Assembly: GCA_045595365.1 (NCBI GenBank)
Contig: JAZOAI010000028.1
Coordinates: forward strand, 14,621-78,620
Reading direction: 5' to 3'
Source of the DNA: Eubacteriales bacterium
GTDB taxonomy: Bacteria; Bacillota; Clostridia; Oscillospirales; JAAYXM01
Length of the DNA stretch: 64,000 nucleotides
Shown here: in pieces, positions 9,723-30,800 of the stretch
How positions within the stretch are numbered: the stretch's first letter is position 1
How the letters are laid out: every line of letters starts with the position of its first letter
The notes under the pieces: model-generated
Database searches by the model: none
What the model saw: only the letters and a program-made list of their open reading frames with translations
Told to the model about the DNA's origin: nothing
Position numbers and translations under genes: made by a program

Positions 9723-9785
9723 TCCTCCAATCTATACAGTATATAACTATAATCACTCTCCCTCAAAAGTCGATTCTGCAAAAAA

Positions 9786-9983: not shown

Positions 9984-9992
9984 AGGCTCACC

Positions 9993-12550: not shown

Positions 12551-12672
12551 AAATTTTTAAGGGGGGATTGGGGAACTCCCCAAAAGGGTAAAGGCAGGAT
12601 TTCCGAAAGGAAGTCCCGCCTTTTTCGGAATTTGTGGTACACAAGTTCCCTGCTCGTTACAGTACCGGACAG
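12551..12672 (-). promoter_or_regulatory. Candidate oriT / mob-operon control region
   Basis: Intergenic region directly upstream of mobC containing the inverted repeats ttgggga-ac-tccccaa and aggcaggatttcc-gaaa-ggaagtcccgcct. The call is positional inference only. Confidence 0.3.
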
Positions 12673-12972
12673 TTATTCTGTTCTCTGTATTGATTTAAGG
12701 CGAATATTGCCTCGTTTTCCTCTTTCATAGACAACTTCCACTCTTGTTCCAAAGTCTATTTCAGGTATTCCTAAGTAGTCATCGGGTTGCTGAAAGGCAG
12801 TGCACATGATTTTTCTGCCATCGTCCAACTCGACATAAGCAATGGCATTGCATTTTCTGCCCCATACCGCAAATCTCATTGTGCCTTTGAAAGTACCCTC
12901 AATCTCGTTAAACTCATAACCATCTCTGCTGAAGTTTGACATTGCAAACTGATTTCTTGATAAAATTCTCAT
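12673..12972 (-). CDS. Hypothetical protein
   Basis: 99 aa from the ATG at 12972, which has an aggagg RBS. No family recognised. Confidence 0.5.
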   Translation of the reverse strand: MRILSRNQFAMSNFSRDGYEFNEIEGTFKGTMRFAVWGRKCNAIAYVELDDGRKIMCTAFQQPDDYLGIPEIDFGTRVEVVYERGKRGNIRLKSIQRTE

Positions 12973-13043
12973 AATGTTTTCCTCCTGTAAATTTAATTTT
13001 GAGCATAAAAAATACACCTACCGATTTATCATCAATAGATGTA

Positions 13044-13961
13044 TTAGTTTTCTTCATCAAAGCCTAAATCAACTTTGGTGAATTCCTGATAAGCTAAGCC
13101 TATCTTTGTTATTCGTTTTTGAACTCCGCTGTGGTTTTTATAACCTAGCACTTCTGCGATTCCTTCTTGTGTGTATCCCTCCAATCTCATTTCAAGTATT
13201 TTTCTGTCTTTTTCTGATAAGATTTCCATAAACTGTTTTACTATCACCTCCGATATAACTTGTTCTTCTGTGTTTTGACTTGAGTCCTCAAATACCAACT
13301 CCTGCCCATCGTTATATTCTGCATACTTGGCTATTTCTGCATCAAGAGATATAATTGGATGTTGAGTGCGAGTGTGATACCATTTTCGTGTAAAATCAGT
13401 TTTTTGATTGCTGTTGCGGTAATCAAAGTCCTCGTGGCATTGAAACTCTTTTGCAACATCAAGAATTTCGTACATTTCATATTTTGCCATAACACTTTTG
13501 ACAGTGTGGTTAAGATAAACCTCAATGTCTTCAAATTCAAAAAATTGAAATTGCACAGAGCCTTCCTTTTGGCAATGACGATAGAGTTCGTTAACAGATA
13601 GTATAACTCTTTCTTCTATCAGACCTTCAAGCCAATATTGTGGTTTGTGTGCAAATATCCACGAAGGCTCATAGCCTGAGTAAATTTCTCTTGCCGCGCC
13701 AATCCCCATAAATGGCCACACTATGTATGCAGTTGCATCAATGATGAATTGAAGAAATAAGTCACTTTCTACAAAATCTATCCATTTTCTATCAAAAAAT
13801 AGAAAATTAGGATTTCTTGGCACTTCGAGAAATATTTGACCGGCTTCTTCTAACATTTCTTTTGGAAATATATAGAATAGCGGAATATACTCCGAATTCC
13901 TATACGCAGACACAGTTCCGTCTAAACGAGTGATGTGCAGTTGTTGTACTTTGGGTAACAT
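13044..13961 (-). CDS. Sigma-70 region-4 / LuxR-type HTH domain protein
   Basis: The C-terminal LSEKDRKILEMRLEGYTQEGIAEVLGYKNHSGVQKRI is a region-4-like HTH. The N-terminal 230 aa are unassigned. Confidence 0.6.
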   Translation of the reverse strand: MLPKVQQLHITRLDGTVSAYRNSEYIPLFYIFPKEMLEEAGQIFLEVPRNPNFLFFDRKWIDFVESDLFLQFIIDATAYIVWPFMGIGAAREIYSGYEPSWIFAHKPQYWLEGLIEERVILSVNELYRHCQKEGSVQFQFFEFEDIEVYLNHTVKSVMAKYEMYEILDVAKEFQCHEDFDYRNSNQKTDFTRKWYHTRTQHPIISLDAEIAKYAEYNDGQELVFEDSSQNTEEQVISEVIVKQFMEILSEKDRKILEMRLEGYTQEGIAEVLGYKNHSGVQKRITKIGLAYQEFTKVDLGFDEEN

Positions 13962-14328
13962 TTTTATTCACTTCCTTTCCGAGAATAGCATTCTCTATTT
14001 ATAAACGACATAAGTATATATAAAATGTTCCTGAAATTTAAAAATATTTTATCATATTGATTGCATCTCGTAAATATCTAGGTTCGTCAATAATGATGAT
14101 ATTTTAAAACTAATTTTATAACACATCATTGACAACTCCACAAAGAATTCAACTTCAATTTTGGAAAAGAAATTGAATATTCTAAACTATTTTGATATAA
14201 TTATAAGTAATATTATTGAATCTCCCTAATGATTTTAATGAATAGCATCAAAATTTAAATATGCAGGTGAGATTGAAGTTCTAAATTCATCTAATGATTA
14301 AAAAAACACCAAAGGAGTGACAGTAAAA

Positions 14329-16065
14329 ATGAAAATCTCATCATTGAAACTATCTGCAGATAGGAATTGCGAAGGAATTAAAATTGGCAAACAATTTAAA
14401 GGAGAGATTGATAAGCTTGGAGATATTGTTGTCTTAACGGGAGGAAACGGATCTGGCAAAAGCAGGTTTTTAAGACTATTGTATAATAGTTTTCAAAATA
14501 TAAAACATAAAGATGGCTCTAATGAACTTTGTTTTAAAGTCGTAGACACAGATGGGGTTTGTAAGGAATTGACAAGTGAACTTGCAAGTGAAATGAATAT
14601 CATAAACTATTCGCATTTTGATGCAAAATTACAATCTCCTGAAAAATTTTCGCCGTATGTTATACATCAAGCAAAAAACAAATTGAAACAGTGTAATTAT
14701 GAGGAAACAGCTTTGAACTCATTATTGTATTTAAAGGATTTAGTTGAAGGGTATTCTGATGAATCTAATCAAGCAAATTCATATAAGGAACTCAGAGAAT
14801 TTATTGAATTTGCAAAAGAATTCGAATTAGAATTTACTTTTATTGAAGAAGAAAGGAAATTAAAAATATTTGGTAGAGACATGGAAAAAGCAAATCTGTC
14901 CCCAGGCCAATTATATGCTTTACGTATCGCAGTAGCATGTAAAGTTCATGATATAGATGATAACTTGATTTTCTTATTAGATGAGCCAGAAACTCACCTG
15001 CATCCCAGTCTGTTGATTAAGGTAATTAATCAACTTTTAATGCGCTTCAAAGCCTCTCAATTTTGGATTGTCACCCACTCTCTATCACTTGTTTCATATT
15101 TGACAGTAACCAAAGAGGATACATCGGTACTTTATTTAGAAAAAGGAGAGGTGAGAGATCGATTGCGAAGCAATTCCGAATTAATTCTCAATGGATTGAT
15201 TGGGGCTGATGAGGAACAATTCGCACTTAAACAGTTATTTGCATCACCAGAGGAAATGGCTTGCAATAAATTTTGTGCAGAATGCTTTATGGATCCCTTT
15301 GTTGTAACAGGAGGAAGTTCAAATGATCCCTCTACTAGTATGATTGAAAATGAGTTGTATTCAGGTAAAGAACTTAAACCTGTTACTATAGTAGATTATG
15401 GTGCTGGATGTGGAAGGTTATTGGAATGTTTGGTCGAAGATGGGATCAAAAATGGCTACGAGTACTATGCTTATAACGTTGATCCTGAGGATGCACATTG
15501 TTGTAAGAATATAATAGAAAATTTCAATGTGAATGGTCGATCATATTTTAAAAAGGAAGAATTATTAGAACTTAAAAATAAAGTTGATAAGGTTATTATG
15601 GTAAATGTATTACATGAAATTCATCCTGATGAGTGGAAATGTGAATTTCAGACGATATCAGATTTACTAAAAGACGATGGGGAACTTATTATTGTAGAGC
15701 GTGAGGAATTAACAATAGGAGAGGCTCCTCATATAAATGGATACTTAATGTTAACAGGCGAAGATAATAAGTCTAGTGCAGCAGAAGAATTGTTTGGACC
15801 TAATAATGTTATATTAACAAGACATAAACAAAAACCATATATTATTAGATATACGATTTCTAAAAACGGTGTCACAACGGCGATTAATGCAAACATAGAA
15901 AGGGTTTTAAAACAGCTTGAAGAAGATGCAATTTCGCATATTGCTGAGCTACGTAAAGATCGAAAAAACATTTCTCAATGCAAGGAAAAATATAAACTTG
16001 GTCTAAGTTTAGCCTTTTGGCTGAATCAACTTTCTAGTGCGATTATGTATCTAAAAAAAGATTAA
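14329..16065 (+). CDS. ABC-type (AAA_21-like) ATPase fused to a class-I SAM-methyltransferase fold
   Basis: Walker A GGNGSGKS (nt 14440-14463), signature-like LSPGQ, Walker B/D-loop IFLLDEPETHLHP and H-loop VTHS. The C-terminal half has MTase motif I IVDYGAGCGRL (nt ~15388), the acidic YAYNVD and VIMVNVLHEI. ATG at 14329 with an aaaggag RBS. Confidence 0.8.
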   Translation: MKISSLKLSADRNCEGIKIGKQFKGEIDKLGDIVVLTGGNGSGKSRFLRLLYNSFQNIKHKDGSNELCFKVVDTDGVCKELTSELASEMNIINYSHFDAKLQSPEKFSPYVIHQAKNKLKQCNYEETALNSLLYLKDLVEGYSDESNQANSYKELREFIEFAKEFELEFTFIEEERKLKIFGRDMEKANLSPGQLYALRIAVACKVHDIDDNLIFLLDEPETHLHPSLLIKVINQLLMRFKASQFWIVTHSLSLVSYLTVTKEDTSVLYLEKGEVRDRLRSNSELILNGLIGADEEQFALKQLFASPEEMACNKFCAECFMDPFVVTGGSSNDPSTSMIENELYSGKELKPVTIVDYGAGCGRLLECLVEDGIKNGYEYYAYNVDPEDAHCCKNIIENFNVNGRSYFKKEELLELKNKVDKVIMVNVLHEIHPDEWKCEFQTISDLLKDDGELIIVEREELTIGEAPHINGYLMLTGEDNKSSAAEELFGPNNVILTRHKQKPYIIRYTISKNGVTTAINANIERVLKQLEEDAISHIAELRKDRKNISQCKEKYKLGLSLAFWLNQLSSAIMYLKKD

Positions 16066-16126
16066 ATTTTGCTATAATCTAAAAAATTTTAACGCTAATT
16101 TGCGATGATACAAGGAGGAAATAACG

Positions 16127-18592
16127 GTGTTTACCATTAATAATATAAAAACCTTCAAAGACTCTGTTCATGGGTATATTGATGTACCTAAATGTTTTGT
16201 GGATAGATTAATAGATAATGACTATTTTCAACGTTTGAGAAATATAGATCAAACAGGTATGCGTGTGTTATACCCTAATGCAAAGCATGATAGATTCACT
16301 CATTCTCTTGGCGTTTTTCATTTAGGTCAAAGGGCTGTTGATGCCTTGCTTGACAATTTTTCTAAAGATCAATATTGGCATATTGAGTCTGATAATCAAT
16401 CCTCTCTATATTGGGCTAAAAATAAGGTTCTTTTTCTAATTGCTTGTCTTTTGCATGACATTGGACATGCTCCATTTTCCCATGCCCTTGAATTACAAAT
16501 GCTTAAAGGCAGTAAGGCTCCAGAGTTAGTTGGCAAGAAACGAAAAAAGAAAGTAACAACGAATGTAGTTGAGAACAAGGATTATGTTACAAGCGAACTT
16601 CAAAGGATCATAACTGAAAACGAAACCGCATATGTAAAACTAAAATATCAAGAACAAAGAGAAAATATAGATTTAAAAATCGAAAAGGTGGCGCCTCATG
16701 AACAAATTGGTGCACTTTTAATTCTTAATGACTTTTTCAAAAAACAGATTATGGATATTCTAAATACGTTACATAACGAATCATTTCCATATTCAGAAAG
16801 AGAGAGCATATTATATTCAGAATACTATCAAGATAGAATTATTATTGATAAAGTTGATGAAGAAGATATAGAAAGTATGGTCATATTTAATGATGATCTT
16901 TGTTTTATAGCACGAATGGTGATGGGATTAAAGTATGAAGATTGGCGACCAGAGCGACAAATAAGAAATTGCTTTATCGAACTCTTGAATGGCGATAATT
17001 TTGATGTTGATAAACTTGACTATATAGTGCGTGATACTCAAATGTCTGGCATAAGTAATATTTCTGTTGATATTGATCGTCTTTTGAATTCATTGTGCAT
17101 AGTTACAAAAACCAAACACTTTAACAAAACAAATTTAAAAAATAAAAAACTTCAACGCATGACTATTGTTCATGTTAAAAACACTTCCAAAAATAGTCGT
17201 TTTCACATTGAGGGAGAATTTCAAGGTACTATCGTTATTAAAAAAAATGCCAATGTAACAATAGAAGAGGGCAGTAAATTTGATTCTCTAATTGGTGTGG
17301 AACAAGGTATGGCTAAACTAAAGTACCAAAATGCTGACATCGCAATATTTGATTCAAATACAGTAGCTTATGAAGATTCTGAATTGGTTCCATATGATGA
17401 AGCGGAAAATGGTGATAAAATTATACAATTACGCGGAAAGGGAGGAAAACGACAATTTAGTTGCGACATAAAAAATGCTACCGTAATAAAAAAATTCCGG
17501 TTTGTTGCAGCTACAGATATTGTTTTGAAGATCCATGAAAATTGCAACATTACTATTAATGGTGAGTTTTATTCAGATAGACCCATTAGATTATTTAATG
17601 TTGAAGATATGAGCGGAGATGTATCTGAAATAGAATTGTTGGGTGATAGTTTTAAACAAAACTTTACTAACACAAAGATTCCAGGAGAAGATGGTTATAA
17701 CACTTTTTCTGTTGGTTTTAAGAAACAATCAATAAATGCAATTGCAAATGTAATGGAGGCAAGAAATTATTTGTATCTTTGGATATATGCACATCATAAG
17801 GTTATATATTATGCAAATTTTCTTATTCCGGTACTAGCTAAAGAAATGATGTTAAACAAAAATAATATAAGCATGTGGAATTTGGATTTTGATAATATAA
17901 AGTATTTAGATGATGCATATTTATGGACTATCATTAAATATAATTATTACAATGAAAACAAGTCAACCAAGAAAACGAAGAATGAGTTAGCGGCGCTTTT
18001 AAGGGAACTTTTTACCAGAAAATATAAAAAGAGTTTATATAAATCATTAGCTGAATATGATTTATTTTTTGAAAAATATGATGAGAAAACTAAATCAAAA
18101 TTACCAGATTATATAAACAGAGTGCTTAATGACAACGTTAAGAATGTTAGACCATACATTAAGGTTCCAGGGAAAAATGGGAAAGATAAATTTATAGTTG
18201 GATATTTTAAAGATTCAGAATTGAGAAAAATAAATATGCTACTTAAATCAATAATTAATGAAAAATTTGCACAAAAAAGTACTCTCAAAGAATATGAAAA
18301 TTTATCTTTATCTGAACTAGTATATGTTTCGGCAGAGTACAAGCTGAAGCAACTTGAAACCTTGAAAACTTTTGTAGATATGAATGATGACATAATTCCT
18401 ATTAGTCATATTCCTTTGTTGGAAGCTCAAACAAAAAAGGCTGAGCAAAATACAACAAATGCGTACTTTTATCTCTATTATCAAACAACATCTTCTAAAG
18501 TGAATTCAAATAGAGAATGCGAGTTTGTGAAAGAAGCATTAAAAAAATATTTTGATGATCTGGTTGAGCAAAATAGTAATACAAAAAAATGA
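16127..18592 (+). CDS. SAMHD1/EF1143-like HD-domain phosphohydrolase (predicted dNTP triphosphohydrolase) with long C-terminal extension
   Basis: N-terminal SVHGYIDV...FQRLRNIDQTG...HDRFTHSLGV, then LLHDIGHAPFSH and DKLDYIVRDT, which is the H..HD..D pattern of COG1078-type HD hydrolases. GTG start with aaggagg 7 nt upstream. About 500 further residues are unassigned. Confidence 0.85.
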   Translation: MFTINNIKTFKDSVHGYIDVPKCFVDRLIDNDYFQRLRNIDQTGMRVLYPNAKHDRFTHSLGVFHLGQRAVDALLDNFSKDQYWHIESDNQSSLYWAKNKVLFLIACLLHDIGHAPFSHALELQMLKGSKAPELVGKKRKKKVTTNVVENKDYVTSELQRIITENETAYVKLKYQEQRENIDLKIEKVAPHEQIGALLILNDFFKKQIMDILNTLHNESFPYSERESILYSEYYQDRIIIDKVDEEDIESMVIFNDDLCFIARMVMGLKYEDWRPERQIRNCFIELLNGDNFDVDKLDYIVRDTQMSGISNISVDIDRLLNSLCIVTKTKHFNKTNLKNKKLQRMTIVHVKNTSKNSRFHIEGEFQGTIVIKKNANVTIEEGSKFDSLIGVEQGMAKLKYQNADIAIFDSNTVAYEDSELVPYDEAENGDKIIQLRGKGGKRQFSCDIKNATVIKKFRFVAATDIVLKIHENCNITINGEFYSDRPIRLFNVEDMSGDVSEIELLGDSFKQNFTNTKIPGEDGYNTFSVGFKKQSINAIANVMEARNYLYLWIYAHHKVIYYANFLIPVLAKEMMLNKNNISMWNLDFDNIKYLDDAYLWTIIKYNYYNENKSTKKTKNELAALLRELFTRKYKKSLYKSLAEYDLFFEKYDEKTKSKLPDYINRVLNDNVKNVRPYIKVPGKNGKDKFIVGYFKDSELRKINMLLKSIINEKFAQKSTLKEYENLSLSELVYVSAEYKLKQLETLKTFVDMNDDIIPISHIPLLEAQTKKAEQNTTNAYFYLYYQTTSSKVNSNRECEFVKEALKKYFDDLVEQNSNTKK

Positions 18593-18816
18593 TTAGTTGA
18601 TATAAATTGCTACTCTGATCTTGTATTATAGGGAGATATGTCTATGGTAACGAGAAAAAGGTATTTATACTACCGTAATCAAAGATAGTGAGATTATATT
18701 GTATTTATGAAATAAATAAATTGCAATAGAGAAAGAGTATAATGCCAAAATCATCGACATCTAAACCGTTCAATGTTTTAATTCTAAATACACAATTTCA
18801 TGGAGGAATAAAGTCT

Positions 18817-19677
18817 ATGAAAGATAATAAAATTCAAGTTTTTGAAGATAAAAAGATAAGAGCTGCTTGGAACGAAGAGGCGGAAGAATGGTATTTTTCT
18901 GTCGCTGATGTTGTTGAAGTTCTTACCGATAGTAAGGATGTAAAGCAGTACATAAAGAAAATGCGTAGCCGTGATGCAGAGCTTAATTCGAGATGGGGTA
19001 CAATTTGTACCCTAACTGAATTGATGGCCGCAGATGGCAAGAGATATAAGACAACCGTTGCCGATATTGCCGGAATACTTCGTATAATTCAGTCTATACC
19101 ATCTCCAAAAGCAGAGCCATTCAAAATGTGGCTTGCCGAGGTCGGCAAAGAGCATATTGACGAAACCATCGATCCTGAGCTTGCAATAGACAGAGCTTTA
19201 GAAATATATCAGAAAAAGGGATATAGCGAGGAATGGATACATCAAAGACTTTTGTCAATACGTGTACGGAATGCATTGACCGATGAATGGGATAAGCGTG
19301 GCGTAGAAAAAGGCAAAGAATATGCTATCCTTACCGATGAGATTTCAAAGGCTTGGTCAGGTATGACAACTAGAAAATATAAAAATCTTAAAGGTCTTAC
19401 CAAAGAAAATTTGCGTGATAATATGTCCGACCTTGAACTTGTACTTAATATGCTTGCGGAAGCGACTACAACAGAAATTTCCAAAAGAGAACAACCTACA
19501 ACTTTTGACGAAAACATAAAAATTGCAAAAAGAGGTGGCTCTGTTGCCGGAAATGCACGCAAAGAAATTGAAAAAGAGACGAGCGAGTCCGTTATAACCT
19601 CTAAAAATGCAGCAGAGCTTAATAAGTTTGTTGCAGACTTAATCGAAGGCGTTGCCGAAAATATATACGAAAAATAA
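18817..19677 (+). CDS. Bro-N domain protein with DinD/antirepressor-like C-terminal region
   Basis: N-terminal IQVFEDKKIRAAWNEEAEEWYFSVADVVEVL matches the Bro-N pattern. Start set to the ATG at 18817 behind a ggagga RBS. Confidence 0.65.
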   Translation: MKDNKIQVFEDKKIRAAWNEEAEEWYFSVADVVEVLTDSKDVKQYIKKMRSRDAELNSRWGTICTLTELMAADGKRYKTTVADIAGILRIIQSIPSPKAEPFKMWLAEVGKEHIDETIDPELAIDRALEIYQKKGYSEEWIHQRLLSIRVRNALTDEWDKRGVEKGKEYAILTDEISKAWSGMTTRKYKNLKGLTKENLRDNMSDLELVLNMLAEATTTEISKREQPTTFDENIKIAKRGGSVAGNARKEIEKETSESVITSKNAAELNKFVADLIEGVAENIYEK

Positions 19678-19693
19678 ATACATAAAAACACAA

Positions 19694-19736
19694 AAAGCCC
19701 GAATATGTAGGCATTATGCTTACACATTCGGGCTTT
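19694..19736 (+). terminator. Rho-independent terminator
   Basis: Stem aaagcccgaatatgta / tacacattcgggcttt (one mismatch) downstream of the Bro-N gene. Confidence 0.6.
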
Positions 19737-19882
19737 AATAATATCCGCACATTTGGCTATATCACACGTACAAAATATACTTTTGAGTGGAGATTTGTGT
19801 AAATGCTAAAATTCATTGATAACTTCTAAATAGTATATTTATGTAAGTGGTAGAATACATAGAGGAAAGGAAGTTGATTTGA

Positions 19883-20722
19883 ATGAAAAAAATCACAAAT
19901 GAGCTAATACTTAGCTTTAAAGAATATTTAATTGAGGAGGAAAAAAGCGAAAACACCTGTGATAAATATATCCGTGATATAACCTTCTTTATGGCTTGGC
20001 TTTGTGGTCAGGAAGTAACAAAGATATTGGCTTTAGAGTATAAAAAGGAGCTTTGTGAAAAATATGCTCCTGCAAGTGTGAATGCGGCAATATCTTCCCT
20101 TAATAGCTTCTTCGCTTTTATGGAATGGCATGATATGCGGATAAAGGCACTAAAAATACAAAGGCAAATATTTTCAAACAAAGACAAGGAACTGACAAAA
20201 GCGGAATATGAGCGATTGCTTACGGCAGCAAGAAGTAAAAAGAATGAGAGATTGTATTACCTTATGCAAACAATTTGTAGTACAGGCATCAGGGTTTCAG
20301 AACTTCGCTACATTACCACATCTGCTGTACATTCGGGACAAGCGATAATAAACTGCAAAGGCAAGATGCGTATTGTCATTCTTCCAAAAGAACTTTGCAA
20401 AATGTTAAAGGGATATATTCGAGAAAATAAAATTGAAAACGGCACCGTTTTCGTAAGTCGTAATGGTAAACCTTTGGACAGAAGCCATATATGGAAAATG
20501 TTGAAAGACTTGTGTGAAGTCGCCGGAGTGTCAAAAGATAAGGTGTTCCCGCATAACTTTCGTCATCTTTTTGCGAGAACTTATTATAGCTTGCAAAAGG
20601 ACATCGTAAGACTTGCTGATATTTTAGGGCATTCTTCGGTAAATACAACAAGGATTTACACAATGAGTACGGGAGAGGTGCACCGTAGGCAAATACAAAA
20701 ACTAGGACTTTTAAGGTGTTAA
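19883..20722 (+). CDS. Tyrosine site-specific recombinase (XerC/D-like, candidate invertase)
   Basis: N-terminal SAM-like core-binding domain. Catalytic motifs GIRVSELR, HNFRHLFAR and LGHSSVNTTRIYT (R-H-R-Y). Confidence 0.9.
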   Translation: MKKITNELILSFKEYLIEEEKSENTCDKYIRDITFFMAWLCGQEVTKILALEYKKELCEKYAPASVNAAISSLNSFFAFMEWHDMRIKALKIQRQIFSNKDKELTKAEYERLLTAARSKKNERLYYLMQTICSTGIRVSELRYITTSAVHSGQAIINCKGKMRIVILPKELCKMLKGYIRENKIENGTVFVSRNGKPLDRSHIWKMLKDLCEVAGVSKDKVFPHNFRHLFARTYYSLQKDIVRLADILGHSSVNTTRIYTMSTGEVHRRQIQKLGLLRC

Positions 20723-20732
20723 AATAAAAAAA

Positions 20733-20755
20733 CCACATAATTCTCATTATGTGGA
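20733..20755 (+). repeat. Inverted repeat left (IRL) of putative invertible segment
   Basis: ccacataattctcattatgtgga. Its exact reverse complement is at 20961-20983. The arms are themselves palindromic (ccacataat/attatgtgg), with an asymmetric tctc core. Confidence 0.85.
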
Positions 20756-20790
20756 ACTCCTGCACAAACACTTGTGAAGTTACATAAGGA

Positions 20791-20819
20791 ATTATATCAT
20801 ATGCAACCAAAAAAATCAA
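20791..20819 (-). promoter_or_regulatory. Near-consensus sigma-A promoter inside the invertible segment (currently facing away from the surface locus)
   Basis: The minus strand reads TTGATT - 17 nt - TATAAT. Confidence 0.55.
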
Positions 20820-20960
20820 TGATTTAAAGGTAATTTGCGATAAATCTCCGTTATGCATAAAAATTGGCACCAAAAGTTGACCGATGAAAACTTATCAACT
20901 AACATCGGTCTTATTTTCGTGCCCAAATTACAAATTTCACAGCACTTGATATTCTATTTC

Positions 20961-20983
20961 TCCACATAATGAGAATTATGTGG
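20961..20983 (-). repeat. Inverted repeat right (IRR) of putative invertible segment
   Basis: tccacataatgagaattatgtgg is the perfect 23/23 reverse complement of IRL. It lies 35 nt upstream of the 21018 start codon. Confidence 0.85.
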
Positions 20984-21017
20984 AGAAAGTATTGTTTTTG
21001 AAAGGTGGAATGTCTTT

Positions 21018-21560
21018 ATGAATATGACTATCGGTGCTTGGACAGCGAATGTTGCAATTGGTATAATTGCGGGAGTTGTGTCATCTTTTATCACACATAT
21101 TTTAATGAGGTTTTCTAAACCTAAAATAAAGATTGCGGAACAGATAGCTAAGAGCAAAACTGCGAACGGGTGGGAGTATCGCTTTAAAATAGTTAATCTT
21201 TCACGAGCATATGCCAAAAATGTTAGAATTCAATTTGAAATGGTAACTGATATCATTGGAAATGGTGGAACAATTTCGAAGGTATATCCTATTCGTTTGA
21301 TGAGGGAAAACATCGATTTTATTGAAGCTTATAGCAAAAAAGATACTAACGCCAATTACGCTGTGCGTTTTGCTTTGAAAGATAATTTGGACGATATTTG
21401 GACTGACGATAATTACTCCTACTTGCGTTTAAAATTCTATTGTGAGAACGAATCGACAGGTGTAGGTAAAGTATTTGTGCAAAAATTTCAGAAGAAAAAT
21501 AAGTCTATTCGAGTTGGGAAATATATGTTCGGGAAATCTTGTGAGATAGTTTCAGAATAG
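21018..21560 (+). CDS. Hypothetical single-pass membrane protein (first gene downstream of the switch)
   Basis: 180 aa with a gaaaggtgg RBS and an N-terminal TM helix (VAIGIIAGVVSSFITHIL). Confidence 0.55.
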   Translation: MNMTIGAWTANVAIGIIAGVVSSFITHILMRFSKPKIKIAEQIAKSKTANGWEYRFKIVNLSRAYAKNVRIQFEMVTDIIGNGGTISKVYPIRLMRENIDFIEAYSKKDTNANYAVRFALKDNLDDIWTDDNYSYLRLKFYCENESTGVGKVFVQKFQKKNKSIRVGKYMFGKSCEIVSE

Positions 21561-21593
21561 TGTATTGCTAATAAATATATTGGAGTTGCTAAT

Positions 21594-22769
21594 ATGAAGA
21601 AAACGATTGCAGTGATTATGATATTGTTGCTATGCACCTCAATTATTATTGCATGTGCAACAGTCAATAGTTCAACAGCGGCTAAAAACTACGATGCCCC
21701 ATTTTCTGATGTAAAAGATACAGATTGGTTCTATGAGGATGTTAAGTATGTTTATCAAAACAACTTAATGAATGGTATAAGCAATACCGAATTTTCTCCA
21801 TCTGGAGTTACTACGAGAGGGATGATAGTTACAATCTTGTGGCGACTTGAAGGAGAGCCAATCGAAAAAGGAAAAGATTTCGATGATGTAAATAACGATG
21901 CATATTATTATAATGCTGTAGCATGGGCATCAAACAATCAGATTGTAAACGGATATAGAGAGTCAACTTTTGGCCCAAATGATACAGCTACTCGTGAGCA
22001 GCTTGTCACAATAATGTATCGCTATGCTTCATATAAGAAATATGATATTTCAAAAGAAGCAGAACTTGATAAATATGTTGATGCAAATCAGATCAGCGAA
22101 TATGCAATAAAGAGCATTAAATGGGCGAATGCAAACGGAATTATTTCAGGAACTTCAAATCAAACAATTTCTCCTAAAGATAATGTTCAGAGGTGTCAGG
22201 TTGCGGCAATATTGAAGCGCTTTTGTGTGAACACTGCTGGAATCAAAGACGAAATCTCAAGCGAAGAACAGCCCGAAAAAGATGTTGAAGAAGAAATCGT
22301 TCAGCCTGGAAACAACAAAGGCGATGAAGAATTCACAAGCCAAGAAACGAACACATCCCCAATAATAGTTGCAGATAAAGTTCATGCTAAACCCGGTGAC
22401 GAAGTTGAATTTGTAGTCGAAGTAAAAAACAACCCAGGTATTTTGGGAATGACATTAACGCTTTATTATGATGATACTTTCTGCACATTAGAGTCAGCCG
22501 AAAATGGAGATGCAGTAAAAAACATCTTGGACTTAACAACTTCGAAAGAACTTGGTAATGGTTCTCGTTTCGTATGGGACGGTGTTGAAATAACCGGCAA
22601 AGATATTAAAGATGGCCCTGTTTTGTTGCTCAAATTTAAAGTTAAGGATGATGCTCCTGAAGGGACTTGTCCAATCACGGTAAAATATTTTAACGACGAC
22701 ATTGTAGACAATAACCTTGATGCCGTTTATCCGGTTATTAAAAATGGCGAAATAGTGATTTCAAAATAA
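21594..22769 (+). CDS. Cell-wall-anchoring protein: signal peptide + 3 SLH domains + C-terminal cohesin-like module
   Basis: Three SLH repeats (FSDVKDTDWFYEDVKYV..., FDDVNNDAYYYNAVAWA..., YVDANQISEYAIKSIKWA...), an acidic linker, then a cohesin-type module (GDEVEFVVEVKNNPGILGMTLTLYYD...FVWDG). Confidence 0.8.
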   Translation: MKKTIAVIMILLLCTSIIIACATVNSSTAAKNYDAPFSDVKDTDWFYEDVKYVYQNNLMNGISNTEFSPSGVTTRGMIVTILWRLEGEPIEKGKDFDDVNNDAYYYNAVAWASNNQIVNGYRESTFGPNDTATREQLVTIMYRYASYKKYDISKEAELDKYVDANQISEYAIKSIKWANANGIISGTSNQTISPKDNVQRCQVAAILKRFCVNTAGIKDEISSEEQPEKDVEEEIVQPGNNKGDEEFTSQETNTSPIIVADKVHAKPGDEVEFVVEVKNNPGILGMTLTLYYDDTFCTLESAENGDAVKNILDLTTSKELGNGSRFVWDGVEITGKDIKDGPVLLLKFKVKDDAPEGTCPITVKYFNDDIVDNNLDAVYPVIKNGEIVISK

Positions 22770-22792
22770 ATATACAGAAAGGACAATGTCAA

Positions 22793-25700
22793 ATGAAAAC
22801 CAAGAAGTTGATAGCTTCCTTGCTATCTTTAGTTATGATTTTAAGTATCATAACACCCACTTCAGTATTAGCTTCTACATCAGTTGCTAAATCAACAATC
22901 ACGGTAAAATCTGTTACCGATACTGCCGGAGCAACAGTAGATGTTGATGTTATTATTGAAAACAACCCCGGAATATTGGGCGCTACATTAGAATTTGCTT
23001 ATGATGAAGGATTAACGTTAATCAATGCGTCGAATGGCGAGGCTTTCTCATCATTAACAATGACTAAGCCCGGAAAATTCATATCTCCCTGCAAATTTGT
23101 ATGGGATGCTCAGGAAATCACATCAGATGATGTAAAAGACGGAAAAATCTTGACATTGCAATTCAAGATAGATGATAATGCGCAAGCCGGTGATGAGTAT
23201 AACATTAATGTATCATATCAGTCGGGTGACATTATTGATGCCGACTTGGCAACACTTGAGGCAAATTTAGTAAACGGTTGTGTTTCTGTTGTTGATTATC
23301 TTCCCGGAGATCTTGATGGCGACAGAATTGTCAACACAAGAGATATTGTTTTGCTAAGGCGACATGTCGCCGGCGGATACGACCAAACAGTAAATGAATC
23401 CGCAGCTGATGTAAATAACGATGCGAAAACAAATACGGCAGACATTGTTTTGGTTCGTAGATATATTGCCGGTGGATACGGCGTTGAGCTTAAGCCGTCA
23501 AAACCACAGTGCGACCATACAATGACGGAAACTGCATACAAAGCTCCGGATTGTACAACAACCGGCAATATAGCATATTGGACTTGCACGAAATGCGGCA
23601 GAATATACAGCGATAAGAACGGAACTACGGAGATTTCTGCTAAAGACGTTGAAATAGCTTCACCGGGCCATTCTATTGTAATTGATGCTGCTGTAGCTCC
23701 GACTTATAGCAGTTCGGGATTAACCGAGGGTAAACACTGCTCTGCTTGTGGCGAAATCATTGTTGCCCAGCAGATAATCCCGGCGTTGCAAAAAGAAGAG
23801 TATTCTATAACGTATCATATTGATAGCAACGATGAATATCTGCAATCTATAAATATAAACAATCCTAATCCTAATACATATGCAAAAGAAGAAGGGTTAG
23901 TATTACAAGATTTGATTGTTAAGGGCTACAATTTCGTCGGCTGGTACACAGCGCAGATTGGTGGCGAGAGAGTAACTAAAATCGCAGCAGGAGAAACGGA
24001 AAACAGAACACTGTATGCTCATTGGGAGAAAGTAGAATATAAAGTGCAATTCTCTTCTGATATGGTTGCAATAGGAGATATGAAGTTCACTGCAGGCGAA
24101 GAAAGAACTCTTCCGAATCCCACCTTGGACAGATATACTTTTGTCGGATGGTCAGATAAAGAAGGTAACATCTGGAAAACAATTCCTAAGGGAACTTCAA
24201 AGAACGTAGTTCTTTACGCAAACTGGGCAAGCAATCGAAATAAAGCTGTGCCTGTAAAGAAGCTTGCAGACCCGATAATCTGTGAAGATTCAGAGAATGG
24301 TTTGATGTTGTTCACTTATGAGATTGGTGAAATTCAGAATGTGCCGTTGTACACAATATTGAAGCTTAATTGCGTCAACGGAATTATCTCAACCATTTCT
24401 ACAACCACCAGCCAGGAAATAAGCTCAACACAAGCTAAAACAATTGCGCAAACGATTTCCAATGCCACAACAAATTCAGCGTCCTGGACATTGGAAAACA
24501 GTTGGAATAACTCGACTGAAGTAAGCCAGAGCTATCTTGATCAGACAGGTCAAACTCGTGAAGAGGCAGAATCTCTTGCAAAGAGCAACAGCGGTACATA
24601 TAATCTGTCTTCAAGTAGCGGAGGCTCAAACGGATATACTGATACAAACAGTGGCTCCTACACCCTTTCAGGAAATCAGGGACACTCAAACAGTTCCACA
24701 ACGGAAACGGGTGAGAATTTTGACTTATCAGTTGATGCTAAATTCTCAAGCGAAACCTCAATAGGCGCTGAAGCAAGCATAGAGCTCGTTAAATTAAATG
24801 CAAACCAAAAATTCGGCTTTGAAATAGGCGCCGGAGCAGGTTATGGAAACTATGTGAAAAACACAAATACAGGTACGGACAGTTGGACAAGTGGAATTGA
24901 TATCAGCAATGAAACGTCAAATACCACAACTGCTCAGAAAAATTGGAACACGGCAGAGGGTTATTCGAACAGTAAAACTATAAGTTCGAATACATCTGTT
25001 GCAAATGCCGTTTCAAAGCTCATAAGCCAGGAGTACGGATATGGCTCATCTTATGCAGAAGGTGGAAGCAACAGCAATTCGCAGGCGTTAGCATCCACCG
25101 ACACAAAAAGTGATGAATACAGCACAACGATGACATATCATACGTCAAAAATCGAATCAACAACAAAATCGATTGAGACTACCGGAAATACAATCGGTGA
25201 TTATCGTTATGTTATGGCAGGAACGATTCATGTTTTTGCAGTAATCGGATACGATGTTGCGGAAAGCAGTTACTTTGTCTATACATATAATGTGCTTGAT
25301 GATGAAACCTATGAATATGTAGACTATTCATTTGACGGAACATTTAATGACTATGAAACAAGCATCATACCGTTTGAAATTCCGCACTTTGTAAATGATT
25401 ATGTCAACACACGAATTGCAAAAACATCAGGTTTGCAAATTGATCCTGACACGGGAATGATAATGAACTATATTCCTGATTCGAACAATCCTGATACAAT
25501 CGTCGTAATCCCGTCATATATGTCAATAGACAACGGCGACGGCACATTCAGCTCGGTTAAGGTCAAAGGCATTGCACCGGGATTATTTAAGAACAATACA
25601 AATCTTGTCGGAATAAAGCTTGGAAACTTCATTACCGAGATTCCGGATTCGGCATTCGAGGGTTGTTCGTCACTGAAATATGTTGTTTCTCCGGGAATAA

Positions 25701-27742
25701 CAAAGATAGGCAAAAATGCATTCAGCGGTTGCTCATCTTTAAGTGAGTTCACTATGTCAGAAGAACTTACTTCTCTTGGTGAAAACGCATTTAAAGGCGC
25801 ATTGAAAATTAAAGCAGTTGCATCAAATGCGGCGGTTGCAAAAGCTGTAGCATCCTCAGGTGCAAAAAATATTGTTCTTGATATTTCTGATATACCGGAA
25901 GCTGATGCTGAGAATATGGAGCTTAACATCGGCGATATAACTTCATTTGAGCTTCAGGGTAAAGACAAGGAGTATAAGGGGCTCAGCGTTAAGTCTGATG
26001 CTACGACAACGGTTATAAATGGCGTTAAGTTTGTTGGAGGAACAAAGATTCCTATGGAAATTTCCTCGCCCAATGTAACGCTTAACAGAGTGAGTGCAAA
26101 TGTAATGGGAACACCGCTTGTTCTTAGTGCAGAGAATGCAACTGTAAAGCTTAATCAGACGGTATCACTTTCATCCTCTGCCGGCAATTCTGTGCTTTGT
26201 AAGAATGTATCATTCTCTTCTTTGAGTACAGCCGTGGTAGGAAAGTTGGTTCTTTCGGGTAATATGGTTGTCGCCGGAACAATTAACGGCGCAACCTATA
26301 TAACCTTTAACAAAGGCGAACTCAAAACCGTCTCCGCAAATGAATTTGCAAATTATTACGCTTTTTGTGATGTGATTTGGGACGGAACATCAATAGAGCC
26401 TGCATACAACGCAAGCACAAAGACATACACCGTAACAAATGCGAGAGAGCTTGCTTGGATATCCGATGTTTCAAACGGCGTGATTACAAGCGGAAAGAAC
26501 TTCCCATCAGACATTACATTTAAGGGATATACCGTTAATCTTGCAAACGATATTTACCTCAATGATCCAACAGGATGGGAAAACTGGGAGGCAACTGCAC
26601 CGCGTAATCGCTGGAAAGGATTTAGCTTTGGTGGAGCTTTCAAAGGAAACAGCCATACAATTTATGGATTATATGCAAGCGGTAATACATACTTCATGGA
26701 GGATTGTTTGTTCCAGACTATCTCTACTTCTGGAAGTGTAGAAGACTTGAATATCGTTGAAGGATATTTTGGAGCAATAAGTTATGGCAACGACGGCACT
26801 ATATCAAGATGCACTACCGACGGAAAGGCTTTTTATGCAGGTGTTGTGAGATTTAACGAAGGTACAATTATAAACTGCACTAATAACGCCGATTTGATAG
26901 CGGCCGACGGCAATATATCATTTGGCGGAATAGTAGCATCTAATGGTGGAAGTGTATATAACTGTGTAAACAATGGAGATATACATATAAAAAGAGGAGA
27001 ATCAACAGGCGGAATAGCGGGAAGTTCCAGCGGAACAATTGAATTTTGCAAGAACTATGGAAATATTTTGCGTTCCGGTGGCACTATCGGCAGTACTTCA
27101 ACAGGTGGAATAGCAGGATTAGCCTCAGGAACGATTGAAGGATGTGCTAATTTTGCGACAGTACGGTCTGAAGTAGGATGCTATATCGCCGGAATAGTAG
27201 GAGATGGTGGTTCCTCCCTATACATTTATAAATGCTATAATGCCGGACCGATATATTGCGATGGCTCAGGCTGTGCAGCAGGCATTCTGGGCGGTGCGTA
27301 TGGTGATAAGACTTCCATAACTATTAAAGATTGTTACAATGTGGCGGATATTACTGCAAGTGGAGAAGATGGGCTTGCATCTGGAATAGTCGGAAGGGTT
27401 ACCGTTTCTACTGTTGGAAAGGGAGTTGCTAATATCTCTTGTGTATATAGCGTTGGAAAAGTAACTAAAGTTTCCGACACTCGACCGAGTCTGTTTGATC
27501 TCCTATCGACCGGAGATGGAGAAATTAAGTACTGTTATTCTCCGTCAACCCCATTATATGGATATATAGAAACAGATCCTGACTTTAGTTATATTACGGT
27601 ATCATATGTAAAACAGGTGTCATCTGAAAAAATGAAAACCCTTTCTAACCTTACGGGATTCAGTTCATCAATTTGGGGAACAGATCCTAACATCAACAAC
27701 GGCTATCCGTATCTAAAAGATTTGGAGGACACATACAAGTAG
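22793..27742 (+). CDS. Giant secreted surface protein: cohesin-like + dockerin + Listeria-Bacteroides (Flg_new) repeats + BspA-type LRR + GLUG-like repeats
   Basis: 1649 aa with a signal peptide. Cohesin-like module (VDVDVIIENNPGILGATLEFAYD...FVWDA). Dockerin with two Ca-loop repeats (DLDGDRIVNTRD / DVNNDAKTNTAD). Flg_new repeats GYNFVGWYT...LYAHWE, LRR_5-like IPDSAFEGCSSLKYV, and C-terminal GGIAG...G.I..C.N repeats. Confidence 0.8.
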   Translation: MKTKKLIASLLSLVMILSIITPTSVLASTSVAKSTITVKSVTDTAGATVDVDVIIENNPGILGATLEFAYDEGLTLINASNGEAFSSLTMTKPGKFISPCKFVWDAQEITSDDVKDGKILTLQFKIDDNAQAGDEYNINVSYQSGDIIDADLATLEANLVNGCVSVVDYLPGDLDGDRIVNTRDIVLLRRHVAGGYDQTVNESAADVNNDAKTNTADIVLVRRYIAGGYGVELKPSKPQCDHTMTETAYKAPDCTTTGNIAYWTCTKCGRIYSDKNGTTEISAKDVEIASPGHSIVIDAAVAPTYSSSGLTEGKHCSACGEIIVAQQIIPALQKEEYSITYHIDSNDEYLQSININNPNPNTYAKEEGLVLQDLIVKGYNFVGWYTAQIGGERVTKIAAGETENRTLYAHWEKVEYKVQFSSDMVAIGDMKFTAGEERTLPNPTLDRYTFVGWSDKEGNIWKTIPKGTSKNVVLYANWASNRNKAVPVKKLADPIICEDSENGLMLFTYEIGEIQNVPLYTILKLNCVNGIISTISTTTSQEISSTQAKTIAQTISNATTNSASWTLENSWNNSTEVSQSYLDQTGQTREEAESLAKSNSGTYNLSSSSGGSNGYTDTNSGSYTLSGNQGHSNSSTTETGENFDLSVDAKFSSETSIGAEASIELVKLNANQKFGFEIGAGAGYGNYVKNTNTGTDSWTSGIDISNETSNTTTAQKNWNTAEGYSNSKTISSNTSVANAVSKLISQEYGYGSSYAEGGSNSNSQALASTDTKSDEYSTTMTYHTSKIESTTKSIETTGNTIGDYRYVMAGTIHVFAVIGYDVAESSYFVYTYNVLDDETYEYVDYSFDGTFNDYETSIIPFEIPHFVNDYVNTRIAKTSGLQIDPDTGMIMNYIPDSNNPDTIVVIPSYMSIDNGDGTFSSVKVKGIAPGLFKNNTNLVGIKLGNFITEIPDSAFEGCSSLKYVVSPGITKIGKNAFSGCSSLSEFTMSEELTSLGENAFKGALKIKAVASNAAVAKAVASSGAKNIVLDISDIPEADAENMELNIGDITSFELQGKDKEYKGLSVKSDATTTVINGVKFVGGTKIPMEISSPNVTLNRVSANVMGTPLVLSAENATVKLNQTVSLSSSAGNSVLCKNVSFSSLSTAVVGKLVLSGNMVVAGTINGATYITFNKGELKTVSANEFANYYAFCDVIWDGTSIEPAYNASTKTYTVTNARELAWISDVSNGVITSGKNFPSDITFKGYTVNLANDIYLNDPTGWENWEATAPRNRWKGFSFGGAFKGNSHTIYGLYASGNTYFMEDCLFQTISTSGSVEDLNIVEGYFGAISYGNDGTISRCTTDGKAFYAGVVRFNEGTIINCTNNADLIAADGNISFGGIVASNGGSVYNCVNNGDIHIKRGESTGGIAGSSSGTIEFCKNYGNILRSGGTIGSTSTGGIAGLASGTIEGCANFATVRSEVGCYIAGIVGDGGSSLYIYKCYNAGPIYCDGSGCAAGILGGAYGDKTSITIKDCYNVADITASGEDGLASGIVGRVTVSTVGKGVANISCVYSVGKVTKVSDTRPSLFDLLSTGDGEIKYCYSPSTPLYGYIETDPDFSYITVSYVKQVSSEKMKTLSNLTGFSSSIWGTDPNINNGYPYLKDLEDTYK

Positions 27743-27857
27743 AAACAAAGCTTCTCTGACGGGAAAACGTAAGAGTTATTGCAGTGAAAAACAAGTAAAT
27801 TTATCGACTTGTGATTGCCCTCTTGGGCAATCACAGGTGGAAAGGAAATGATACAAT

Positions 27858-30800
27858 GTGAAGCAGAAGAGAATAATTGCTTGCTTGCTGTCAATGGTGA
27901 TGTTATTAACAACATTTGCGCCAATTTCCGCTTTTGCTATAGCAGAGCCAACCATAACGGTGCAAACAGTAACAGATGTTGCAGGTGCTACTGTTGAGGT
28001 GGATGTTGTTTTAGCAAATAACCCCGGAATATTAGGTGCTATATTGACAATTAGCTATGACGAAGGGCTGACACTCCTTGATGCATCATCAGGAGAAGCG
28101 TTTTCAGGCCATTCGATGACAAAGCCCGGAAAGTTTACATCTCCTTGTAAATTTGTTTGGGACGGTGAGGACATTGATTCCATCGAAGTAAAAGATGGAA
28201 CGATACTTACACTTCAATTCAAAATCTCCGAAGATGCAGAGGCAGGACATGAATATGCCGTAAACGCATCATGTGTAAAAGGAGATATAACAGACAACGA
28301 CTTAAATGACATTGATGTCAAGATTGTCAACGGAAGCGTTAACGTTGTCGATTATATGCCCGGAGACCTCGACAATGATCAGATTGTTAATACAAGGGAC
28401 ATTATCTTGCTCCGCCGAGACATTGCCGGAGGCTACGAACAAGAGATAAATAAATTGGCCGGTGATGTCAATGCTGATGCTACAAGAAATACAAAAGATA
28501 TTATTCTTATCCGCAGATTCATTGCAAGCGGATATGGAGTAGAACTATTGCCCGGCAAGAGTGCCTGCGATCACAATTTGACAAAAACAGATTACAAAGC
28601 TCCAACGGAATCAGCTGCAGGTAATATTGAATATTGGACATGTTCACTTTGCGGAAAGTATTACAGTGATAATGGCGGAAAAACAGAGATTACACTTGCC
28701 GATACTGTAATTGAAGCAACAGGTGGTGAGGTTGATCCCAATGCACCAACAATAACTTACCACATCGCAAACAATGATACATATCTTGAAAGCATTATTA
28801 TAGATAATCCCAACCCGAAAACTTATTCAACAGAGACCGGATTGGTTCTCCAGGATCTGATTGTTAAGGGATATAATTTCAAAGGTTGGTTTACTGCTCA
28901 GACAGGTGGAACACAGGTAACAAAGATTGATGCTGGAGAGACAACAAACAAGACCCTTTATGCTCATTGGGAAAAAGTAACTTATACAGTAAGCTTTGCA
29001 TGCGATATGGTTCTTCCTGGTGGAGAGATAAGTGATATTACATACACAGTAGATAAAGAGTATGTCTTGCCTAAACCTACAATGGATAAATATACATTTG
29101 TTGGTTGGACAGATAAATCAGGTCAATTGTGGAAATCGATACCTGAAGGTACAACAGGAAACATTAACCTTTATGCTAACTGGGCAAGTAATAGAAATAA
29201 AGCTGTTGCGAAAGAAAGCCTTGATGCACCGTTCATTTTTGAAGACACAGATAATGGTCTGATACTCTTTACCTATGAAATTGGTGAAATACAGAATGTT
29301 CCTTTGTTTACAACACTAAAACTAAATTGTGTAAATGGTATTATTTCAACTACAGAAGTAACTAAAACAAGTGAAATTAGCGACACACAAGCATCTGCTA
29401 TTGCACAGTCTATTTCAAACGCAACTACAAATTCTTCATCGTGGACCTTGTCAAGCGACTGGAATGAGACGACCGAAGTTAGTGAAAAATATTTAGAAGA
29501 AACAGGCAAGACAAGAGAAGAGGCTGAGACTTTATCAAAGAGTGAAAGCAATACATATTTCCTAAACTCTAGCAGCGGAGGTTCAGCGGATACTGTAACA
29601 GTAGATGGTACAACATATAAGCATTCAGGTAATGTTGCAGGTTCATCAACGACTGACATGGGAATCAAACAAACTTCCTCACTTAATTCAAAAGTAGGCG
29701 GTGGCATTGGACTTGGAAATGAAAAAAGTTTAATTAGTGGTAATGTTTCTGCGGAAATCGAAGCAGGGAAAAGTCAAGAATTGTCAGTTAATATGTCTGG
29801 GACAAATGGATGGGATGAAGGCGAAGAACAAGGGACGGATCATTCAACCACAAAAACAGAGTCTAGTAACTGGAATTCAACATCTGGATATGAAAACAGT
29901 AAAACCACTAGCCAGAGCACAACAATCTCAAACATTATTTCTCAAGTCGTAAGCCAAGAAAAGGGATACGGTGAAACATATTCTTCTGGTGGAAGCAATA
30001 GCGAAGCACAAGCTTTTGCGTCATCAAACACACAAAATGATGAATATAGTTCAACTATGACATACTATACATCTACAATTGAATCCTCAACTACGTCTTT
30101 CTCAAGCACAGGAAATACAATTGGAGATTATAGAATGGTCATTGCCGGAACTGTACATGTTTTTGCAGTAGTTGGATATGATATTGCAAACAAAGAATAT
30201 TTTGTTTATACATACAATGTTTTGGGTGATGGCTCGAAGGATGATGGAACTTACGAGTATCTCGACTACTCATTTGATGGTTCCTTTAAAGATTATGAAA
30301 CAACAGTTATTCCTTTTGAGGTTCCATACTTTGTAAATGAGTATGTTGCGAATAGAATAGCAAAAACAGATGGATTATTGTTTGATCCAGATACAGGAAT
30401 GATAGTAGATTATCTTCCTGAAGATGGAACAACAGCGAATGTTGTTATCATACCGTCCTATATTGTTGTTGATAACAACGATGGTACATTCAGTGCAGAA
30501 AAGGTTACAGGCATAGCACCTGGATTATTCAAGAACAACACAACTATAAAAGCTGTTCAGTTAGGACGATTTATAACTGAAATACCTGATTCGGCATTTG
30601 AAGGTTGTACATCATTGGAATACCTACTATGTCCGGGTGTAACAGAAATAGGAAACAGTGCATTTAGCGGATGTACATCGTTAGAAAGCTTTGCGCTTCC
30701 TGTTGAAATAACAACAGTAGGCGAAAATGCCTTTGAAGGTGTACCGGAAGTTAAAGCGACAGCATCTAACGCAGATATTGCGCAGGCTGTAGCGGCATGT

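Follow-up and report, generated by a model that had tools for sequence, protein, structure and literature searches.

Promoters that a linked recombinase flips between two orientations are a well-known kind of regulatory system, and the closest architectural analogue of the element considered here is the fimB/fimE-fimS-fimA locus of Escherichia coli. The element is a tyrosine recombinase gene followed by a 205-nt segment between 23-nt inverted repeats, and it lies in a 64,000-nt stretch of DNA from a Eubacteriales bacterium (hereafter the window, to whose positions all coordinates refer). In both loci a tyrosine recombinase sits directly upstream of a short segment, invertible in fim and probably so here, that holds the promoter for downstream surface-structure genes. 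In fim, the promoter in the OFF orientation is aimed back at the recombinase gene, populations are strongly OFF-biased, and fimS requires IHF and Lrp. The repeats of fimS are 9 bp long, whereas those of the window are full lox-like palindromes (9+4+9); the window recombinase also falls outside the FimB/FimE family, and its cassette has insulating hairpins of its own.

The sites themselves are better compared with those of Cre/loxP, of heterospecific lox variants and of the XerH/difH type, which likewise have inverted binding arms around a short asymmetric centre that sets the outcome, here inversion. As with lox, partner sites share a centre, and in the window's family the arms are constant but the centres differ freely from locus to locus. 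The dimensions differ, loxP being 13 + 8 + 13 and the family sites having 9-nt arms and a variable centre of 4-5 nt, and the window switch would be a natural chromosomal module for gene regulation, not a phage or plasmid resolution system. In Clostridioides difficile, a single unlinked recombinase, RecV, serves many switches, and those of cwpV and flgB act after initiation, through terminator formation or Rho, rather than by re-aiming a promoter; the cwpV promoter lies outside its switch. A reading made from the letters of the window alone (hereafter the sequence-only reading) had assigned the locus to the recombinase-linked phase-variable promoters and named cwpV and flgB as matches; the kind stands, while these two are a weaker match. 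In the RecV switches (cwpV, flgB, cmrRST and pdcB), a tyrosine recombinase inverts ~150-200 bp upstream of surface or motility genes; the likeness, drawn from description, lies in the Firmicutes host, the type of recombinase and a short segment placed upstream of such genes.

A possible relative among Clostridia comes from a read-based survey of invertons in a defined gut community, in which inverton group 139 comprises 33 invertons, 32 of them from Clostridia, in 17 strains (2025, Microbiome, PMC11892184). Its repeats, 13-26 nt long, enclose 206-228 nt and almost always stand next to a tyrosine recombinase of invertase group 35; several copies occur per genome, the Oscillospiraceae genus Intestinimonas is among the hosts, and reads record flipping, with orientation ratios that shift over culture passages (PMC11892184). 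The survey gives no site anatomy, promoter or terminator model, and the likeness to the window's family, compared by description, is one of geometry, host class and recombinase linkage only; we take it as a lead and not as an identity.

At the heart of the locus, the 23-nt sequence CCACATAATTCTCATTATGTGGA occupies 20733-20755 and recurs as its perfect reverse complement at 20961-20983, just as the sequence-only reading had placed it, 10 nt past the stop codon of the recombinase gene and with 205 nt between the copies. That reading had also put the bracketed DNA 35 nt before the first gene of the downstream locus; the right repeat (IRR) in fact ends 34 nt, and the bracketed DNA 57 nt, before the ATG at 21018. 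Allowing up to 3 mismatches, only these two copies exist in the 64-kb window, and 100 dinucleotide shuffles of the sequence yielded none, which confirms that the inverted repeat is real and far above chance. Perfect repeats of 23 nt set 205 nt apart around an intergenic segment of less than 1 kb are the geometry of an inverton. The features of the cassette are as follows.

19694-19736, no strand assigned: left-end insulating hairpin, AAAGCCCGAATAT...ATATTCGGGCTTT, an inverted repeat with 21-nt arms, nearly invariant in an alignment of eight loci
19737-19882, plus strand: recombinase leader, a highly conserved block in the same eight-locus alignment
19883-20722, plus strand: Xer-like tyrosine recombinase of 279 amino acids, from Pfam and PDB alignments
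20723-20732, minus strand: A-rich tract (a T-run on the minus strand), from a terminator-like call on 20754..20733 plus TTTTTTTATT
20733-20755, plus strand: left recombination site (IRL), CCACATAAT-TCTC-ATTATGTGG-A, from arms conserved throughout the family and a centre that covaries
20819-20791, minus strand: predicted invertible promoter TTGATT-17-(TG)nTATAAT, from a promoter scan, aimed at the recombinase in this assembly
20866-20923, no strand assigned: extended hairpin with core GACCGATG/CATCGGTC and flanking A- and T-tracts, from the inverted repeat, folding energy and covariation
20961-20983, minus strand: right recombination site (IRR), the exact reverse complement of IRL, its outer edge being the right boundary of the cassette

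Each of the two repeats is itself palindromic, with 9-nt arms around TCTC on the left and GAGA on the right, the right site reading CCACATAAT-GAGA-ATTATGTGG. Compared as direct repeats, IRL and IRR are 83% identical, and their inverted orientation is carried solely by the four central bases and one flanking base. Inverted arms around an asymmetric centre that matches between partners define sites of the lox type, and both IRL and IRR and the sites of their relatives have this form; read from its letters, each repeat has the build of a complete, simple tyrosine-recombinase site with two binding arms. This lox-like character of the individual repeats had been missed by the sequence-only reading. 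A literature search with the site sequence returned unrelated primer matches only.

The protein encoded directly upstream is well suited to such sites. It matches Phage_integrase (PF00589, 1.2e-30) and, in its N-terminal SAM-like domain, Phage_int_SAM_1 (PF02899, 1.1e-6), and it aligns with XerA (1e-25) and XerD (4e-20) in PDB with the catalytic motifs in register. All six catalytic residues assigned from the XerD/XerA alignment are present (R137, K161, H224, R227, H250 and Y259), giving the R-K-H-R-H/W-Y set and SAM-like N-terminal domain of the tyrosine recombinase superfamily. Homologues are plentiful, more than 8000 at E <= 1e-20, and the best is 92% identical. Scores fall below the NCBIfam equivalog cut-offs for XerA (144 bits vs 220), XerD (140 vs 330) and XerC (117 vs 335), and paired inverted sites beside the gene are at odds with a single dif site; with the FimB/FimE-type invertase models the scores are 37 bits (NF007370, cut-off 221) and 29 bits (NF007371, cut-off 222). 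An integron-like system was considered and rejected, the NCBIfam integron-integrase scores being weak and far under their cut-offs and the sites forming an inverted pair; attC-like sites were not noticed, though no search was aimed at them. The conserved leader holds an extended -10-like element, TGgTAGAAT, at 19848-19856, and a ribosome-binding site (RBS), AGGAAAGGAAG; the former is a candidate for the recombinase's own promoter.

The cassette is not unique to this genome. We compared about 90 related loci, drawn from two genomes with the exact 23-mer pair, 49 metagenome loci and contigs with close homologues, together with one locus reached from the cargo side and one on a megaplasmid of Monoglobus pectinilyticus. 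A unit of about 1.3 kb recurs among them in a set order: insulating hairpin, leader, recombinase, site, promoter with bidirectional hairpin, site. In the roughly 66 loci with enough downstream DNA, whose recombinases are 52-92% identical, the two-site pattern is nearly constant: a left site (A/C)ACATAAT-N4-ATTATGT(G/T) stands 7-30 nt past the recombinase stop, and its reverse complement follows 170-335 nt beyond. The association expected of an inverton, a nearby site-specific recombinase conserved together with the repeats, holds down to 52% identity. Two loci depart in distance from the stop, L010 (sites at +481/+754) and L032 (+153/+436), which suggests insertions between recombinase gene and switch.

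Evidence that these palindromes are recombination sites comes from their centres. We found 15 centre types, 13 of them tabulated plus TGTG and AGAA (the latter in locus L091), and none is palindromic; wherever a locus yielded both sites, its two centres are reverse complements of one another. At L091 the covariation extends to the innermost base of the arm, giving ATAAC-AGAA-ATTAT in both sites. The list of sites was made without imposing the reverse-complement rule, and zero loci have left and right sites in direct orientation; copies in the same orientation are only tandem duplicates on one side (L011 and L042). Even recombinases 81-92% identical to the window's are paired with the same arms and different centres (TCTC, TTGC, TGCG, TGTG, TCAA and TTTG). 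Constant arms with varied centres are the signature expected if the arms bind the recombinase and the centres must match for strand exchange.

Site number is not fixed at two. L011 has two tandem sites on each side (+18 and +50, +323 and +355 after the stop), forming a 50-nt inverted repeat, and L042 has one left and two right sites (+30, and +337 and +378); the duplicated sites could allow more than two arrangements in these loci.

Inversion is seen directly, as assembled alternative alleles, in three related lineages, for which both orientations occur in natural populations. The clearest case is a locus represented by seven JGI contigs with an identical recombinase (P0020, 90% identical to the window's), among which those long enough share their upstream genes. 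In L076 the whole switch is present in the ON orientation, with the promoter TTGACT-16-TGtTATAAT on the plus strand facing an RBS and ATG past the right site; L080 and L082 match it exactly as assembled, whereas L077, L078, L079 and L081 match L076 after in-silico inversion, at 921/921, 938/938, 896/896 and 896/896 identical positions. In a second lineage, L034 shares its left site with L022/L033, and the 159 nt that follow at once are 99-100% identical to the L022/L033 interior read on the opposite strand; in a third, inverted L021 matches L047 at 100% over 111 nt. Relatives whose recombinases are 60-90% identical to the window's thus occur both ways round at one and the same locus, and this type of cassette does invert, as far as assembled sequence can tell.

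A third kind of allele also occurs. In L012 (compared with L013, L014 and L015) and in L030 (compared with L022 and L033), the interior and one site are precisely deleted, so that only one site, with the left centre retained, stands between recombinase and cargo. The arms create an 11-nt direct repeat, ATTATGTGGTA, in both sites, and the deletions could have arisen when the recombinase acted on the palindromic arms, or when replication slipped between these direct repeats.

Some contigs also end in or near the switch. Four Logan contigs from four runs (L066, L069, L070 and L071) stop at the same base in the right site (...CCACATAATCGCAATTATGT); we set this shared end aside as evidence of heterogeneity, as it falls 2 nt short of the expected branch between ON and OFF in the assembly graph. 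Three others (L055, L062 and L068) end at or just past the left site.

Between the sites, the window carries a near-consensus promoter, TTGATT-17-TATAAT at 20819-20791 on the minus strand, that points away from the downstream genes, as the sequence-only reading had proposed; the promoter scan agrees and adds a TG upstream of the -10 element. Switch interiors of the family are only ~70% identical, even between loci with identical 23-mers, with promoter and hairpin held at fixed positions. The family promoter is TTGACA-like with a spacer of 16-18 nt and TGnTAnAAT, lies about 30-45 nt from the left site and faces the recombinase; an equivalent, in the same position and on the same strand, is found in 65 of the 66 complete switches. 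When the window's switch is inverted in silico, creating the left ON junction ...ATTATGTGGA|GAAATAGAATATC..., the promoter moves to 20897-20925 on the plus strand, with a predicted start near 20932, ~86 nt before the ATG at 21018. At the level of sequence, then, an internal promoter faces the regulated genes in one orientation only, as in other invertons.

Two hairpins around this promoter may act as terminators. Past IRL on the minus strand comes TTTTTTTATT, present as the sequence-only reading had it and flagged as terminator-like; A-rich tract and left-site hairpin together would act as an intrinsic terminator on the minus strand, stopping the switch promoter when it is OFF. The flanks of the two sites are unequal across the family: among 44 distinct loci, A makes up a mean of 8.7 of the 12 nt just outside the left site, and T a mean of 3.2 of the 12 just outside the right. 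With a T-run at the left exit and none at the right, the same hairpin sequence should terminate at the left exit only, which fits the earlier view of an OFF promoter halted at once; in the inverted window, the right-site hairpin falls in the leader with no adjoining T-run. The second hairpin, GACCGATG...CATCGGTC followed by TTATTTT at about 20880-20917, had been read as a terminator on the plus strand. Its parts are there, but rather than a simple one-way terminator it is an extended two-way hairpin spanning 20866-20923, with folding energies of -22.2 kcal/mol (plus strand) and -25.2 kcal/mol (minus strand) and z-scores of -6.1 and -5.7. In its 8-bp core, compensatory double changes occur at four of the eight pairs among 19 loci (GACCGATG, GACCAATG, GACCGATT and AGCCAATG). 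It is a candidate two-way terminator that would shield the cargo from recombinase read-through in either orientation.

Taken together, these observations lead us to put the probability at about 85% that the window holds a functional recombinase-linked invertible promoter cassette, sequenced in its OFF state. The OFF reading proposed earlier is supported, every element that it named being present and conserved across a large family. By its shared anatomy, 19690-20984 is to all appearances one copy of an insulated phase-variation cassette of gut Clostridia, and with perfect repeats, an intact recombinase and all conserved elements, this copy should be functional. In the mechanism we propose, the recombinase would bind the arms, and strand exchange within the matching centres would invert the 205-nt segment. 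In the OFF state, the promoter would fire towards the recombinase, its transcript ending after some 30-60 nt at the left-site hairpin and T-run, and read-through from the recombinase gene would be blocked at the interior hairpin. In the ON state, the promoter would stand ~35 nt upstream of the right site, with its lack of a T-run, and transcribe the 15-kb SLH/cohesin/dockerin operon beyond. That the switch is the main control of this whole operon is probable, though held with less assurance than the existence of the cassette.

Several points weigh against this interpretation. Of the switches assembled with both sites, 65 of 66 have the window's OFF orientation, so either OFF is strongly favoured or many copies seldom flip. 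Inversion, proposed earlier for the window, holds for its relatives, and the window's own copy has been seen in one orientation: no second orientation of its locus was found, and the contig index has no exact record of its recombinase or of the first cargo protein (P0121, 100% identical). The promoter and terminators are predictions from consensus and structure, and the recombinase is assigned to its putative sites by adjacency and co-conservation. A weak plus-strand promoter-like sequence, TTGACC-17-TAACAT at 20877-20905, overlaps the interior hairpin, and the OFF state could thus be leaky. Finally, a promoter-like TGGACA-17-TATAAT with an upstream TG (11/12) lies on the plus strand at 21039-21067, inside the first cargo gene, and might drive the downstream surface genes independently of the switch.

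This last site figures in the alternative that survives best, although we consider it unlikely: that the switch flips but chiefly controls the recombinase, through convergent or antisense transcription, or a short RNA, the operon depending mainly on another promoter such as 21039-21067. In the predominant state, a strong promoter does face the 3' end of the recombinase gene, and a homologous cargo locus does run from a fixed promoter. In that locus (L092; GCA_045638945.1, JAZUCF010000011.1, 2565-3540), a homologue 70% identical to the first cargo protein precedes a giant LRR_5/MBG_2/Flg_new protein without a recombinase or switch, behind a fixed TTGACA-17-TATACT promoter, with a divergent HTH_26 gene and a RelB/YoeB pair upstream. 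L091 has a 73%-identical homologue in the window's arrangement, between a cassette member (in the OFF orientation, with a recombinase 75% identical) and a giant SLH protein. Conservation of the internal promoter-like site is lacking in L091 (score 8.5) and weak in L092 (10.0), and the site falls on conserved G-I-I/F codons; it is probably there by chance. The OFF transcript would meet a conserved hairpin and T-run within about 60 nt, and the stretch of 15-45 nt from the -10 element to the left site is not conserved, so a conserved small-RNA seed is unlikely; a functional short RNA as the main function of the OFF-facing promoter was rejected, this region varying in both sequence and length. Most loci with enough downstream DNA have the RBS and start codon of a plus-strand gene 3-85 nt past the right site, which also speaks against this alternative.

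It is more improbable still that the palindromes are mere terminators or operator hairpins around a fixed antisense promoter, with no inversion here and a recombinase that is the integrase of an unrelated mobile element. Both sites do fold as hairpins and are flagged as terminator-like, the one-sided orientation of the complete switches would be expected, and other recombinases are encoded on the mobilisable element to which the region probably belongs. Yet terminator loops need not be reverse complements of each other, as they are for all 15 centres; the order and spacing of recombinase, site, promoter and site are kept down to 52% protein identity; exact inversions occur in three lineages; and the right site has no T-run. 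At the level of the family this explanation is largely refuted. That the opposite-orientation contigs are assembly artefacts of the inverted repeats is the least credible alternative, for although an assembler whose k does not exceed the repeat length can place a short repeat-flanked segment the wrong way round, and many contigs do break at or within the switch, the family repeats of 20-27 nt are probably below the word sizes usual for final metagenome contigs, so that inverted junctions should rest on real reads, the inverted contigs come from three lineages in independent samples and projects (JGI and ENA) and are 99-100% identical to the in-silico inversion, and breaks within the switch are what a mixed population would yield.

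The cassette's edges are sharp. We compared window positions 18501-22000 with 12 loci by BLASTN: homology begins at 19657-19685 in seven of them (L054, L083, L052, L076, L064, L004 and L003) and later, within or just before the recombinase gene, in four others, and its other end falls at 20982-20984 in 11 loci, right at the outer edge of IRR, with unrelated cargo beyond. The upstream neighbours differ from locus to locus and include tsaD/rpiB, mfd, a protein kinase, Fic, and DUF6076 with a sigma-like gene. The cargo is just as varied, comprising SLH and LRR_5/Flg_new/cohesin surface proteins, operons of SPFH and zinc-ribbon proteins, an MmeI-like methyltransferase domain, YspA/SLOG, a metallo-beta-lactamase-fold protein, an SbcD-like phosphoesterase, an AAA ATPase, a set of HSP70-like, GrpE and FtsK-like genes, TetR-type regulators, regulators called XRE-type by sequence resemblance only, and nuclease-like genes.

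A tentative reading of these boundaries is that the ~1.3-kb unit is a portable plug-in cassette for arbitrary cargo, whose sites act as natural heterospecific lox sites, with arms recognised alike by near-identical recombinases and private centres of 4-5 nt that block recombination between switches, and for which deletion is a third, locked state arising at those sites. If so, one type of recombinase could serve a large number of separate switches in the same genome and yet leave the chromosome unscrambled. Although the kind of system is well known, its lox-like sites with private centres, double insulation, sharp boundaries and deletion allele seem undescribed. The family, very common to judge by its recombinase homologues, may be a major and little-characterized source of phenotypic heterogeneity in gut Firmicutes, and its compact, insulated design with variable-centre sites makes it a candidate synthetic-biology part for Clostridia.

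As to where such cassettes occur, a scan of viral contigs with the generic site gave two isolated single palindromes and zero paired modules, and phage records gave no match. Plasmid records contain one distant member (L093; NZ_OY725740.1, 33629-35289), on a 335-kb plasmid of Monoglobus pectinilyticus, a cultured organism that could be a tractable strain for experiments. Its recombinase is 52% identical to the window's, its sites (ACATAAT-TTTG-ATTATGT and ACATAAT-CAAA-ATTATGT) are 260 nt apart, and the left one overlaps the recombinase stop codon.

In the window, the cargo is an operon of five surface-protein genes, laid out as follows.

21018-36448, plus strand: cargo operon of five genes with gaps of 33, 23, 115 and 68 nt, from open reading frames and Pfam
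21018-21560, plus strand: gene 1, a 180-amino-acid protein, probably membrane-anchored, whose hydrophobic N-terminal segment looks membrane-spanning
21594-22769, plus strand: gene 2, SLH and cohesin (Pfam)
22793-27742 and 27858-32114, plus strand: genes 3 and 4, dockerin, LRR_5 and Flg_new, about 1400-1650 amino acids (Pfam)
32183-36448, plus strand: gene 5, YDG, MBG_2, Big_2, Flg_new and SLH, 1421 amino acids (Pfam)
36463-36493, no strand assigned: strong G+C-rich hairpin between convergent genes, 14 pairs of which 7 are G-C

The 180-amino-acid product of the first gene has no Pfam match, and the closing hairpin is likely the end of the operon. Were the switch to work as proposed, this 15-kb cohesin/dockerin/SLH operon would come under stochastic ON/OFF control, and its products are candidates for adhesion, substrate binding, or phage or host interaction in a gut clostridial organism.

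The surroundings have a mobile character. The window has a G+C content of 42%, and its minus strand encodes, at 7974-13961, a large serine recombinase (Resolvase, Recombinase and Zn_ribbon_recom), ParB, a MobA/VirD2 relaxase and a sigma-70 region-4-like protein. The region is probably part of a mobilisable element, and the switch and surface operon may be riding on an integrative element. Immediately upstream of the cassette, at 14317-19677 on the plus strand, are a fusion of AAA_21 (an AbiEii-like ATPase) with a methyltransferase domain, an 821-amino-acid HD-domain protein and a Bro-N protein, which could be a defence or phage-related island.

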